This document shows positions 2,389-53,990 of a stretch of 64,000 bases of DNA, piece by piece. The notes under the pieces were generated by a model. It had not been told where the DNA came from. It saw only the letters and a list, made by a program, of their open reading frames with translations, and did no database searches. The first letter of the stretch is position 1. Each line of letters starts with the position of its first letter. The stretch comes from Eledone cirrhosa (taxonomy: Eukaryota), in contig OZ024741.1 in NCBI GenBank assembly GCA_964016885.1, positions 290,532,001-290,596,000 on the forward strand, written 5' to 3'. A program made the translations under genes and the position numbers.

Positions 2389-2512
2389 GTTATTAAAATA
2401 ACAGATTAAAGTTTAAGCAAAGAATCGGTGCTTTCACCCTTAACGTGTTCTTATATATTTGATATATATTTATCCTTATCGAGCCCTTTTGGGATTTTAG
2501 TCTTCAAATTTA
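2389..2512. mobile_element. Family B PLE terminal fragment with inverted 5' part
   Basis: 2389-2445 is the reverse complement of 45411-45465; 2447-2512 matches 45481-45547 directly. Flanked by (TA)n and (TAT)n. Confidence 0.75.
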
Positions 2513-2560
2513 TTATTATTATTATTATTATTATTATTATATATATATATATATATATAT

Positions 2561-4100
2561 ATGAAAGACGTAAATAAGAAAGTTATGAAAATTGACTTAC
2601 TAAAATTTCATTCCAACTAATTAGTTTCTGTAAGGGGATAAATATGGTTACGGAGCGTTTCCATAGAGAAGCCTTACGTCATCAGGGAGTCTATTCTCAG
2701 CTAAGCTTCCAGGCAATGCGGGGACACTGGGAACTTATATAAAAATAATTCAGTGGATGGAAAGAAGCGAGCGGGGACTAGATTCCAAGACATTGAAAAA
2801 TTCGCTGCCTACTTGGTCGAGTGGCAAATTCAAAATAATCAATCACGTGACACTGAGGTTAATCAGCTAGGAGTGGGGTGCTATTAAGACAGAGCCTAGC
2901 CACTACTATTACTCACAGTAGTAATTTCGGAAAGTTTTGCTCAACAAATAATTTGGAGATAATTATAAAGAATTAGTATATTTACCAACATATGTATACA
3001 GATGCATACGTATGCTAGCAAATATATATGTTTTGTCTTAGTAACTTTGTGGTTCTATGCAAGGGGATGCAGAACAATTATATGAAAGACGTAAATAAGA
3101 AAGTTATGAAAATTGACTTACTTACTAAAATTTCACTCCAACTAATTAGTTTCTGTAAGGGGATAAATATGGTTACGGAGCGTTTCCATTTGCCACTCGA
3201 CCAAGTAGGCAGCGAATTTTTCAATGTCTTGGAATCTAGTCCCCGCTCGCTTCTTTCCATCCACTGAATTATTTTTATATAAGTTCCCAGTGTCCCCGCA
3301 TTGCCTGGAAGCTTAGCTGAGAATAGACTCCCTGATGACGTAAGGCTTCTCTATGGAACGCCCCGTAACCATATTTATCCCCTTACAGAAACTAATTAGT
3401 TGGAGTGAAATTTTAGTAAGTAAGTCAATTTTCATAACTTTCTTATTTACGTCTTTCATATAATTGTTCTGCATCCCCTTGCATAGAACCACAAAGTTAC
3501 TAAGACAAAACATATATATTTGCTAGCATACGTATGCATCTGTATACATATGTTGGTAAATATACTAATTCTTTATAATTATCTCCAAATTATTTGTTGA
3601 GCAAAACTTTCCGAAATTACTACTGTGAGTAATAGTAGTGGCTAGGCTCTGTCTTAATAGCACCCCACTCCTAGCTGATTAACCTCAGCGTCACGTGATT
3701 GATTCTTTTGAATTTGCCACTCGACCAAGTAGGCAGCGAATTTTTCAATGTCTTGGAATCTAGTCCCCGCTCGCTTCTTTCCATCCACTGAATTATTTTT
3801 ATATAAGTTCCCAGTGTCCCCGCATTGCCTGGAAGCTTAGCTGAGAATAGACTCCCTGATGATGTAAGGCTTCTCTATGGAAACGCTCCGTAACCATATT
3901 TATCCCCTTACAGAAACTAATTAGTTGGAATGAAATTTTAGTAAGTAAGTCAATTTTCATAACTTTCTTATTTACGTCTTTCATATATTTGTTCTGCATC
4001 CCCTTGCATAGAACCACAAAGTTACTAAGACAAAACATATATATTTGCTAGCATACGTATGCATCTGTATACATATGTTGGTAAATATACTAATTCTTTA
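2561..4100. mobile_element. Family C non-coding element: ~525-bp unit in partial tandem plus inverted copy
   Basis: TTTGCCACTCGACC recurs at 3189 and 3713; 2561-3188 is the reverse complement of ~3352-3985; (TA)n on both sides. Confidence 0.85.
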
Positions 4101-4127
4101 TATATATATATATATATATATATATAT

Positions 4128-4467
4128 ATTGTTATACTTGGGGAGGGTCATATTGTTGTAATAATATTGCCAGAAATAATAACAGAACACACTCACTGTT
4201 TGGTTTGTTTTCGCTTCTGTATCTTTTATATCTCCATAGTTTATTCATTTGGTCCTCAATATTTATTATTGATTGACGAACGGTTAAACACACACACACA
4301 CACACACATATATATATATATATAAGATCTAGAAGCGAAAACCAACCAAACAGTGAGTGTGTTCTGTTATTATTTCTGGCAATATTATTACAACAATATG
4401 ACCCTCCCCAAGTATGACAATATTTATTTCGACACACGATTTCATATCAAAAACTTGCAAAACAATT
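4128..4467. mobile_element. Family D fold-back non-autonomous PLE-like element
   Basis: 4128-4220 is inverted at 4330-4420; the right arm carries an extra tail; same family at 43243-43630. Confidence 0.8.
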
Positions 4468-4539
4468 ATATAAATATATATATATATATATATATTCAAT
4501 GATATTAAATAAATGGAAACTATATTTATAAACCATATT

Positions 4540-50200: not shown

Positions 50201-50309
50201 AGAAAACCACAACAATGACGGCACAACAGCAGGAGCGAATATAGGAACCTAATAACAACCACCACCAATCAAACGATACTGTGCTCCCTATATGGACTAT
50301 AAAACTAAC

Positions 50310-50885
50310 ACTGTCACCATCACCAACATTGTCACCATCACCAACACCATCACCAGCAATATTCCCATCGTCACCACCAACATTATAACCAACACCATTT
50401 CCATCACCATCACCATCAATATCATTAACACAGTCACCAACAACGCCACCATCATCATTGCCATCAACATTGTTTTCACTATCACCATCACAATCACAAT
50501 TACCACTACCATTACCATAACCACTACCATTACCATTACCACCACCAACATCATTAATATCAACATCATCAATACCATCACCACCACCAACAATATTACT
50601 ATCACAATTACCATCACCAATACTATCAACATCAATATCATCATCACCAACAACCTCACTACACCATTACCTTCACCAACCCAATCACCATCACCATCAC
50701 CAACACCATCAACAACACAATCACCATCACCATCACTATCACTAACACCATCACCATCACTATCACTAACACCATCAACAACACTATCACCAATGCCAAC
50801 ACAATCACCATCACCATCACCATCACTAACACCATTAACAAAACTATCACTAACACCATTACTAACGCCATCACCATCACCACTA
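50310..50885. repeat. Compound (ACC/ATC/AAC)n low-complexity tract
   Basis: Imperfect trinucleotide periodicity. Confidence 0.85.
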
Positions 50886-53231
50886 GAAGGTCTAACATTA
50901 CTAAATTACAGCCGACAACTGTCCAAAAACTGCCCCTAAAATTTTCAACATTATTCTTTTTTTGTCAGGTCTGCCATAAATACGAAACAGAAATTACGTT
51001 TTTATACCTGACATCAGTCGCCTCACCCCACAACAGGGTCTGTCTCAATCTAGCAGACCTCTTTAATTCATTTATCCCACCTCTTATTCCACCTCTCACT
51101 TCAAACTTCAACCACAAACCCACCCCCTATTGTGCACTGTTCATGCTACTACTATGCTTTCTCTCAAGATATTCCCACCCCACTGACGTTAACTACCAGT
51201 CTTTCACCTCAGTTCTCTACACTTTAATTTTCTCTCCCGCTTTTTCTCCACACATAAGCCCTCCTCTTTACGATGAGCTATTATTCTTCCACTACTCTCT
51301 TTGTAGTAACGTTTTCACCTTACATTTCTTTTCTTTTCTCTATTTGTCAAGACCAAAGGTAGTGCCCTTTCCAAGGCCTTCGAAACTAGTAGGTGAGAAA
51401 GAGAGTGGAAGGTATCCTTAAAACGAAGCGCTGGCTCAAATATTTAGTCAACAGGAAAGATAATGTCCTTTTCAGGGCCTTCGACTCTAGTAGTTAGAAG
51501 TGAGAAAGCAAAAAGTGCTCAAATCGGGACCTGGATCGAATACTTGTAACAGAGTAGAATCTATTAAAGGCAACCATGGTTCAGGTGGTGGTGTTAAAAA
51601 ACAGACTAATTTTTCCACCTATGTAGGCCAAGGCGAGCTTTGAACACCGTATGCAAAGAACCGACACAAATACCCCAAAATGATTCCATTAGGTCACCAT
51701 ACTTAACTTGTACTTTACTTTAATGTGAAAATTTCTTCCTTTTTGTATGTTTGTAGTTAGCTTTTTGAGACATAGTGTATTTATACAATATTAACGTTAG
51801 TGTTTACTTTTTGATTTTGTTTTGTGTTTAGTGGGGTTTGTTGCTGCTATTGTTATTGCTGTTGTTCCTGTGTAGATGTTATTGCTTTTTTACATCAATT
51901 AACTGCCAAATAGGATATTAAATCTAACATCAAACTAAACCTTTCGCATCTCATACATAAATATTCTGTTGAGATAATTGATCAAATTTTACTGAAAATA
52001 TAAACTAAATACGTTACATAATTTCCACAACACAGCTTTTAGACAAAAGGATGTTACGTCATTTTTCTTCCTATCTCTTGTTTAATTGACTGTAACTAAA
52101 TATTTTTCACACATAATGACGTAAAACATTCATCCGCCATTTCCCTTTTGATTAGATTCCATCAGAATATCACTTCCCCATTTAGTTCGCTGCGAAAGAC
52201 CATTCACATTTACAACGAAGGTGCCTTTCTTTTCCTCAAGTCATGTGTAACAATCCCTTCATGGTTGGCACTTAACTGTTTTGTGTATAATCTGCTTCTA
52301 GAGCATTCACCTGTAATCGATAGATATGGACACAGAATATACCTATAAAATATTCTAAAGTATATATATATATATATATATATATATATATATACATTAA
52401 ACATACATACACACGTATATATGTACATATATGTATGTACAAATGTAAATATGTGCTTGTGTATGTGTGTATGCTGTATTTGATTTTGACATTCATAAAA
52501 CCTTATATAATTATTATCATGTTCCCTCTAGCTTCACACATTCATTCGGTCAACTTAGAAAATATATTTCGATCAAATTGAAGTTTATTACTCTTAATTG
52601 GTATAGTTACATGGAGTTACTGGTATGTTAATGGCGGACTAATTTATTTCTCTGAGATATAATATTCTATGCAAAGTATGGTGAATACGATCTTTCCTGT
52701 TCGTAGTTCGCTATATTCACTTATGTTAAACTGTCCTTAATTTTCTGTATTCTTATTTAATCCTATATTTATTGTGTTATTTTTGTTAGTATTCCTTTAT
52801 GAATAATCATATGTACACGTGTATAACTAACTACACGCGTATTTTTCTCCCGAAAATTTAATGTTTCGTTTTCTTTCTTTTCTTACTTTCGTCTGTCTTT
52901 CTCTTTCTTCTTCGGTCTTTCATTCATCTTCCGATGAAGGACGAACCACCAAAATTTCAAGAGTCTTTTTCTACTTTATCAATCGTTAAACTAATGTTTT
53001 TATCACCATTGTATTATATTGTCTGATGTGTTTTTGCTTTGTTAAGTTTTCTTATACATACTCCCCCACAAACCCATATATATATATATATATATATATA
53101 TATATATATTAGAGTATAGGGTTAAACGAACAGAAATGTGCGGACCACACTGTGGTCTGTCGATTGCGAAGCAGATAAAAAATAAGAGGTCAACGACCTG
53201 TTTAAACGGTGCAAGTCGGAGCATTACATAC

Positions 53232-53498
53232 TAATAGAAGATGGGAGGCCATATTCAGTTTCTTCGACGGCCGGCCCTGTATGATACAACACCACGCGTT
53301 TGGCCGGTCCCCTGCATCATGAAAATAACTTTTGCGGGGAAATTATTGTTTTTTTCTCCAAATTTGAAGGTTTCTTTGGAACTTTCAATGTTTATCTTAA
53401 GTTTTGAAGATTGAAGAACTCAGGCCGATAGTCAAATGTGCCTGACGGAGTTTTAAATAAACCTGAATCAACTGCTTATGGCCTCCGATCTTTTATTA
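53232..53498. mobile_element. MITE with ~22-bp terminal inverted repeats
   Basis: TAATAGAAGATGGGAGGCCATA ... TATGGCCTCCGATCTTTTATTA. Confidence 0.6.
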
Positions 53499-53569
53499 AT
53501 ATATATATAAGGGCGGTGGATTAGTAGTATCGGTAGAGGGTCTGACGCCATATAGTTATATATATGTAG

Positions 53570-53990
53570 AGGTTATATTTAATTTGTTGGGATACAACAA
53601 GCAAAACATTTTTATAACTGATATAAAGCACTCAACAAATTATTGGAGTAAATATACAATATATTAACAAATGGAAACTATATTTATAAAACCATATTTA
53701 TTTCATTATACATATTTCAAGGGCCACCAAGGCAAACTATGGTGCGCTTTCATCAGATAAACTATAATATAGGTTAGTTTTATAAATAAATATTGACATA
53801 CCCTATCCAGGAGATCCCAACCAGAATGGTTGCATTTTTTCAGGGTATGTCAATATTTATTTATAAAACTAACCTATATTATATTTTATCTGATGAAAGC
53901 GCACCATAGTTTGCCTTGGTGGCCCTTGAAATATGTATAATGAAATAAATATGGTTTTATAAATATAGTTTCCATTTGTTAATATATTGT
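53570..53990. mobile_element. Family A-related fold-back with HHR in both arms (plus copy 53882-53947)
   Basis: TATTTTAT-CTGATGA-AAGCGCACCA..TGGTGGCCCTT-GAAATATGTATA^ATGAAATA; arms ~53653-53803 and 53843-53990. Confidence 0.85.

Follow-up and report, generated by a model that had tools for sequence, protein, structure and literature searches.

Paired fixed ends and a bulged hairpin in one-tailed inverted insertions of Penelope-like elements from Eledone cirrhosa

Penelope-like elements (PLEs) are the sister group of telomerase, and published views of their inverted and tailed insertions invoke self-priming, resolution by the endonuclease (EN), or two internal start sites of reverse transcription observed in vitro. 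Comparisons made here refer to the accessible text of the papers cited. A tail carried by one of the inverted pseudo-long terminal repeats (pLTRs) was reported with a proposal of self-priming (PMC3846280). Craig 2021 (PMC8557442) describe, for PLEs generally, a tail that is often present at one end only together with an inverted 5′ copy, and attribute the tail to EN-mediated resolution. For the Poseidon element PAc of the green anole, Frangieh 2024 (PMC11167929) found two internal starts that match the genomic tail ends, with hammerhead cleavage not needed. Here we analyse 64,000 nt of the Eledone cirrhosa genome (contig OZ024741.1, positions 290,532,001 to 290,596,000; hereafter the window), drawn from one contig of a 3.0 Gb, (AT)n-rich genome. 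Self-BLAST with microsatellites masked reveals many palindromic insertions with (AT)n on both sides, accompanied by hammerhead cores and by open reading frame (ORF) pieces of a reverse transcriptase (RT) and of a GIY-YIG EN at the C terminus; these insertions are PLEs. Their two arms end at two fixed sites on either side of a small hairpin, nearly always one of each.

Arm ends and their pairing

Position zero is the first base of the RCTC strand of the hairpin, U denotes the arm end just upstream and T the tail end. Family letters are those of an earlier note on the window, where they could be matched; C is a label added in this analysis. That note held that the tailless inverted arm repeatedly stops a few nucleotides before a tail hairpin, and all 13 arms it cited adjoin a microsatellite close to where it had placed them, approximately 3-16 nt before the stem (Table 1; gaps run from the last element base to the RCTC strand, ranges representing bases common with the flank). 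Families D and E likewise show two fixed ends, with arms that stop, as the note had also proposed, at AAGTAT(AACAAT), 6-14 nt past the start of AAGTAT (4125 region, 22224 and 43241).

Arm ends were classed from 682 de-duplicated matches to 10 window references, found in a contiguous sample of 464 kb, which includes 400 kb of DNA neighbouring the window, and in genome search loci, 30 per query, representing the best-scoring (young) copies. The U class spans -25 to 0, a range fixed after inspection of the window; the A, G, J, F, H, I and second B queries ended upstream of the hairpin, and the first B query spanned a junction. A genome search with the family E query gave no match, and the analysis of D and E draws on incidental copies. 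Simple repeat, nearly always (AT)n, borders 606 of the 682 arm matches (272 U, 311 T and 23 other ends), the other 76 being unclassed matches that do not abut a repeat (tandem interiors, locus edges and interruptions). The U ends are concentrated at -15 to -3 (244/272) with a sharp mode in each family, -9 for J in 45/61, in agreement with a fixed site, and the tails are family sequence, not locus-specific flanking DNA, because the same tail stops at the same final base at many loci. An identical J centre at ~17 loci was selected by the query and is not used as evidence. J arms genome-wide start almost always at -52 to -75, the limit of the reference used, which suggests a short element or a strong RT stop. 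The one exception, a family A locus not cited in the note (19841-20091), has a U end and a second end ~60-70 nt further upstream, within the hammerhead's AT run; this right-arm end is at or near the predicted hammerhead cleavage site, an origin indistinguishable here from target microhomology.

Among 191 head-to-head pairs, 176 combine one T and one U end (TU), 4 are TT, none is UU, and 11 include an end of the other class. With the 28 query-selected B pairs excluded, 148 of 163 are TU, 4 TT and none UU, and the contiguous 464 kb alone holds 31 TU pairs, no TT or UU pair and 3 with another end among 34 (P = 5e-10 against a 50% null). These counts retain two doubtful TT pairs, L269, a double count, and L262, possibly nested. 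A prospective test used full-length G copies whose 5′ inverted arm had been typed beforehand: the far end was of the opposite type in 8/8 informative copies, 11 loci having been tried, of which one was interrupted and two were without a match. The long arm is tailless and the short arm tailed in 5 of these 8, so that a short inverted arm need not be the tailless one.

The near-strict pairing bears on two explanations. If there were two RNA species, one processed to end at U and a longer one reaching to T, each copied from its 3′ end, the fixed ends would follow directly; independent RNAs would, however, often give TT and UU pairs, the latter never seen. In A, G and I, moreover, the predicted hammerhead cut precedes U by ~30-60 nt, so that the hammerhead makes neither end, its cleavage being ruled out by position as the origin of either, and two RNA species appear to us very unlikely. 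Endonuclease trimming, in which T is the start of both arms, or both are borne on one DNA intermediate, and one tail is cut off just before the hairpin by the GIY-YIG EN, would yield the one-of-each rule with a single cut; the U ends are AT-rich like EN targets, and recognition of Penelope DNA by the D. virilis EN depends on the tail, according to earlier work cited in Frangieh 2024 (PMC11167929). The same study maps two RT starts directly in Poseidon, however, the microhomology of U with the flank fits priming, and a trimmed end would still need joining to the target, which leaves trimming an unlikely, if somewhat better, candidate.

The arms are also templated separately. Of 133 unselected TU pairs, 29 have a tailed arm that ends within the tail or at U, mostly at -12 to +30, leaving the two arms with no or almost no sequence in common; the tailless arm therefore cannot have been copied from the tailed one by fold-back. 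The five G loci with a full-length tailless arm and a short tailed one add to these, solo tailless copies exist (L122, L129), and 30 B loci built as a tail-only arm plus a tailless arm have differing junctions (these loci being query-selected). Fold-back self-priming, by which the tailed cDNA snaps back and is copied sense-wise until a stall before the hairpin, U being that stop, would account for the many centres that are near-perfect palindromes and for U sitting exactly where a polymerase would meet the hairpin. It is already contradicted as a general rule by the tailed arms too short to template their partners, the G loci and the solo copies, and the hairpin is a weak one; its prospects as the general cause are slight, although some junction centres may yet owe their form to it. 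In raw counts, many B and J pairs overlap by 0-6 nt at the junction, and target site duplications are unreadable because the targets are (AT)n. Gaps measured at the palindrome centres disagreed with BLAST coordinates at several loci and are not used to judge how often the arms are equally long. Both the one-of-each rule and the arms that do not overlap speak for twin priming.

The note had further placed the start of the tailed cDNA at the RNA 3′ end, which is unsupported, since sequence continues beyond T in four families. What follows T is the element body in 22 of the 29 G copies that hold the 5′ end of the ORF, and the next unit in tandem H, I and C copies; the bases at T in these four families are TAT or TATA, as at most U sites. 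Because DNA runs past T, the simplest reading would make this end another internal site, as in Frangieh 2024 (PMC11167929), at which a few bases pair with the target.

Repeats other than (AT)n occur beside some ends. (CT)n lies between the G tailless end and (AT)n in 5/26 copies and in L322, and directly at T ends in 0/24 (window 32447-32503, L113, L120, L122, L129 and L322); where both ends of such loci are visible, the opposite flank is plain (AT)n. It could reflect slippage repeat synthesis at the start site, compound targets, or later expansion. In family H, the element's terminal bases themselves recur as repeats, ATTTA and TTTA (L213, L204). An origin of (CT)n in telomerase-like repeat synthesis is weakened by template-unrelated (AC)n at both end types and by the commonness of (CT)n(AT)n: in the 464 kb sample, (AT)4 follows 24 of 81 (CT)n tracts and precedes only 2. 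The (CA)n tracts have a polarity as well, with (AT)4 after 52/141 and before 16/141.

The bulged hairpin

Among (AT)n-bounded inverted insertions sought de novo, 37 clusters have tails of at least 30 nt. R(C/T)TC within 24 nt of U, with a downstream complement, is present in 21 of them (shuffles 1.9, maximum 7), and the stem begins 3-9 nt past U in every one of the 21 (one representative each), though the upstream sequences differ. The motif consists of RCUC, an inner stem, a 2-nt 3′ bulge and GAGY, with an outer stem of ACTC/GAGT in 13 clusters, GCTC/GAGC in 7 and GTTC/GAAC in 1. Inner pairing, scored from the first 5′ and first 3′ match with the bulge disregarded, is Watson-Crick at 53 of 63 positions with a 2-nt bulge, against 16, 10, 7 and 10 at bulges of 0, 1, 3 and 4; shuffling strands across families gave 25 +/- 4 inner pairs, and 0/5000 shuffles attained 53. 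The first inner pair is T-A in 11 clusters and C-G in 8, and the first base of the bulge is T in 20/21. This covarying hairpin names a small RNA element and the exact bases to mutate. Scanning the 464 kb for the motif returned 89 matches, 47 of them within 100 nt of a downstream (AT)5 (background 9%; other bulge lengths 4-10).

The earlier suggestion of AT microhomology at the arm ends also held, with 2-4 nt of TA or TAT found frequently and 1-4 nt common to the flank at most U ends. Microhomology alone could on this basis be thought to fix the tailless end, the hairpin being incidental or serving another step. Longer AT runs nearby are seldom used, however, with 3/141 ends in the run at +13 to +27 of the B tail and 2/62 in the A hammerhead run; microhomology alone therefore does not set the end site, and the 3-9 nt distance to the stem despite differing upstream sequence argues in the same direction, making this the explanation we find hardest to credit.

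Outside this genome, the hairpin can be seen in Hydra-clade consensi from corals and sea cucumbers. Among the six Hydra consensi of Craig 2021 (PMC8557442), as accessible and read by eye, an exact motif lies close to the 3′ end in Hydra-2_Amil and Hydra-2_Ajap, the motif occurs twice at the 5′ end in Hydra-1_Ajap, and Hydra-1_Crog and Hydra-1_Amil have it in imperfect form; it was not seen at the 3′ end of Hydra-1_Obim. An Rfam search named no PLE or hammerhead family among the 150 matches listed of 270, of which only U2 was over threshold, the rest being miRNA-type chance matches. The tails of D and E share another core, TT(T/C)(G/A)ACACACG..TTTCA, after their fixed upstream end (window 4324-4466, 23690-23963 and 43440-43625), a candidate second binding motif for Neptune-like elements.

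Element families and other features of the window

The coordinates of the insertions are collected in Table 1. The C-terminal GIY-YIG domain follows the RT in order in G, and the A, B and F arms lie 3′ of homologous EN pieces. The CxCX5C linker is present in G, A, B (L255) and F-type pieces, and translations of G, B (L255) and A (L087), read by eye, are without CCHH and have CxxC and CxH around conserved E and N. G contains DKT, with RWR at the RWK place in the window copy, and resembles Hydra-1_Obim by eye. A hammerhead core was recognised by pattern in A, G, I, C and E and was not found in the window pieces of B, F, H and J. Insertion into (TA)n, a mark of the Hydra clade, holds for nearly all of the 606 repeat-bordered matches above. 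The A, B, F and G arms are thus placed downstream of putative ENs with the Hydra-clade signature, whereas H, I, J and C, without a linked ORF, are tentatively assigned to this clade by the hairpin alone. Pfam returned no match for the Hydra-type pieces. In the family E piece, a broken copy, the core contains two Cys, a His follows further on, and the match to GIY-YIG is weak (E 0.0085). Neptune/Nematis-type ENs are marked by a Zn-finger linker and CCHH, and the E piece is a putative Neptune-like EN, to which D is linked by tail similarity. Tandem units measure 173 nt in I, ~520 nt in C and 567 nt in H. The contigs of five metagenome relatives end before any tail.

Table 1. PLE insertions in the window, with the gap between the tailless end and the hairpin stem
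Feature	Position	Strand	Details
Family B tailless arm	2390..2452	-	U end 2390 (cited as 2389); gap 6, taken from the copy at 45473 because its own tailed arm is without the hairpin 5′ strand
Family B tail-only arm	2447..2510	+	begins +8 inside the hairpin; no sequence in common with the tailless arm
Tandem family C	2557..4099		hammerhead core; tailless end 2557-2562; compensatory hairpin GTTC..GAAC 3466-3489, 3991-4014
Family D1	4122..4466		two fixed ends, without RCTC hairpin
Family A insertion	4492..7382	- / +	tailless arm 4492-4621 (-), long tailed arm to 7382 (+); Hydra-type ORF piece 4769-5875; hammerhead core 7192; hairpin 7297-7317; end 4492-4496, gap 3-7
Family J palindrome	12596..12780	- (tailed arm)	hairpin 12645-12668; tailless end 12780, gap 9
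Family I	14422..14793	- (hairpins)	173-nt tandem unit and hammerhead core; hairpins 14466-14484, 14639-14657; tailless end ~14788-14793, gap 11-16 (A-run, ambiguous)
Family H1 palindrome	19185..19621	- (hairpin)	variant hairpin GCCC/GAGC, not RCTC, 19233-19258; tailless end ~19621, gap 5
Family E	22224..23963		Neptune-like EN piece; two fixed ends, without RCTC hairpin
Family F palindrome	24007..24511	- (tailless arm)	tailless arm from 24007-10, gap 4-7; tailed arm carries hairpin 24357-24424, whose 3′ strand has mutated to TAGT (GAGT in other copies)
Family G, Hydra-clade	29006..32446	- (tailed arm)	2.5 kb tailed arm; broken RT-EN ORF; hammerhead core 29138; hairpin 29047-29066
Family G tailless arm	31501-32446		followed by (CT)29(AT)n; end 32446, gap 5
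Family J palindrome	34092..34308	- (hairpin)	hairpin 34141-34164; tailless end 34305-34308, gap 5-8
Family D2	43241..43625		two fixed ends, without RCTC hairpin
Family A2 palindrome	44123..44621	- (hairpin)	hairpin 44184-44203; tailless end 44619-44621, gap 5-7
Family F2 palindrome	44663..45169	+ (hairpin)	tailless end 44663-44666, gap 4-7; hairpin 45007-45075
Family B tailed copy	45331..45556	+	hairpin GCTC..GAGC 45473-45518
Family J palindrome	46381..46594	- (hairpin)	hairpin 46430-46453; tailless end 46594, gap 9
Family H2 palindrome	46910..47284	+ (hairpin)	tailless end 46910, gap 7-9; hairpin 47214-47235; 567-nt tandem unit elsewhere
Family A3 palindrome	53568..53991	- (hairpin)	hairpin 53630-53649; tailless end 53990-53991, gap 5

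Different PLE families have inserted serially in one (AT)n run to give back-to-back palindrome clusters, for example at window 44123-45556. Another Hydra-type EN fragment lies at 355-1344, with 70-74% identity to the F-linked ENs. A U2 snRNA copy on the minus strand (18932-19175; Rfam 127 bits) has (AT)5 directly before its start and, close to its 3′ end, is fused with a tail of family B whose first base is +22, in the hairpin loop; this chimera is likely a template switch from PLE RNA to U2, and U6-L1 chimeras are similar template-switch products. Elsewhere in the window are LINE RT ORF pieces of another kind (35457-37201 and 16100-16555), which we take to be RTE-like, and a long trinucleotide-based tandem array with a GC content of 57% and a strong strand skew (40000-42250).

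Proposed mechanism and comparison with known systems

From the arm ends and their pairing, it is probable that each of the two cut (AT)n strands primes on one kind of RNA, at a site that precedes the hairpin for one strand and follows it for the other. An element protein would bind the conserved bulged RNA hairpin and cut both (AT)n strands; one target 3′ end would then prime at U, a few bases before the hairpin, and the other at T, 60-160 nt after it, with the exact base picked by 2-4 nt of TA/TAT pairing with the target. A dimer bound to a single RNA may assign one of its subunits to each strand, for which the predicted PAc dimer is the precedent, and one RNA on one dimer would explain the rarity of TT and the unseen UU pairs. 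Both cDNAs would be antisense, attached to opposite flanks and stopping at variable points, and the joining of their 3′ ends would leave an inverted repeat, arranged head to head and tailed on a single side. The T-primed cDNA would have to pass the hairpin and the U primer, and may often stall at either. The internal start beside the hairpin that the earlier note proposed stands insofar as there is a fixed site beside the hairpin and there are two separately templated arms; that the hairpin sets this site, as a binding site for protein, we infer from its position and covariation.

In its widest form the proposal is that Hydra-clade PLEs and retrozyme-like passengers share a cis-acting RNA element (RCUC stem, 2-nt UN bulge and variable inner stem), conserved between corals, sea cucumbers and this genome, which docks a protein dimer that primes both strands on either side, the one-tailed inverted insertions being programmed, obligate asymmetric twin priming; we give this an even chance of being correct. 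The two internal start sites seen in vitro, the extension of both target strands and the predicted dimer of the Poseidon study (PMC11167929) are in favour of the priming mechanism itself. Several points weigh against that mechanism. At least two TT loci are genuine (L073, L175), and 16 of the 37 tail clusters are without the exact motif, some being variants or mis-called; as these and D/E do without it, the hairpin is not required for the two-site pattern generally. The 21 motif-bearing clusters are not independent origins, because the families may have common ancestry. The hairpins are energetically weak (-2 to -8 kcal/mol, z +0.4 to -2.9, in a set in which two of ten windows cut into the stem), and complete tails show no better folding than their shuffles, although this weakness would fit a protein-read shape better than a polymerase block. 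Transcripts of a source copy that stops at T would continue into (AU)n, and priming on this run could simply pass T on. Finally, the start site in the Poseidon assay is the same for both strands, inside the stem-loop and without target homology, as far as the accessible text describes it (PMC11167929).

The closest likeness is to PAc itself, in which two discrete ends bracket the tail, the target is AT-rich and an upstream hammerhead does not make the ends (PMC11167929). PAc belongs to another clade and its sites lie in an AC-rich stem-loop within the ORF, whereas here U lies 3-9 nt before the stem in non-coding sequence, outside the ORF in G. The PAc tail measures 30-40 nt and those here 60-170 nt, and its start is without target homology, while 1-4 nt are often common here; the accessible text of that study reports neither a pairing rule per insertion nor an RNA motif across families. 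Likeness to the Hydra clade (PMC8557442) extends to the CxCX5C linker, the absence of CCHH, CxxC/CxH around E and N, DKT (in G), the hammerhead core (in A, G, I and C) and (TA)n targets, but A, B and F have long 3′ UTRs, unlike the published description of the clade, whose main text does not describe the hairpin and has 0 uses of the word.

The same features recall LINE-1 twin priming, in which a second priming at the target and the joining of two cDNAs produce an inversion (Ostertag and Kazazian 2001, as summarised in PMC10760644), and the loci with a tail-only and a tailless arm look just like its products. Unlike LINE-1 copies, these insertions have a fixed second site and mostly overlapping arms, and they are usually inverted. 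The short tandem I, C and H units, with hammerhead cores in I and C, resemble the animal non-LTR retrozymes described as non-autonomous PLEs (bioRxiv 10.64898/2026.07.22.740005), a preprint whose accessible text makes no mention of tail, hairpin or initiation; the units here, by contrast, carry the same hairpin and end sites as autonomous Hydra elements. The hairpin motif can also serve to locate the ends of elements, and their non-autonomous passengers, where genomes are rich in microsatellites. A literature search gave no report of the hairpin or of a counted pairing rule, with subscription papers thinly covered and a prior mention possible. Internal initiation is already published and, judging by the accessible text, mostly explains the present pattern (PMC11167929); to it the insertions of this genome add a conserved bulged hairpin, a near-strict pairing of one T with one U end, and genomic evidence that speaks against a general origin by self-priming.

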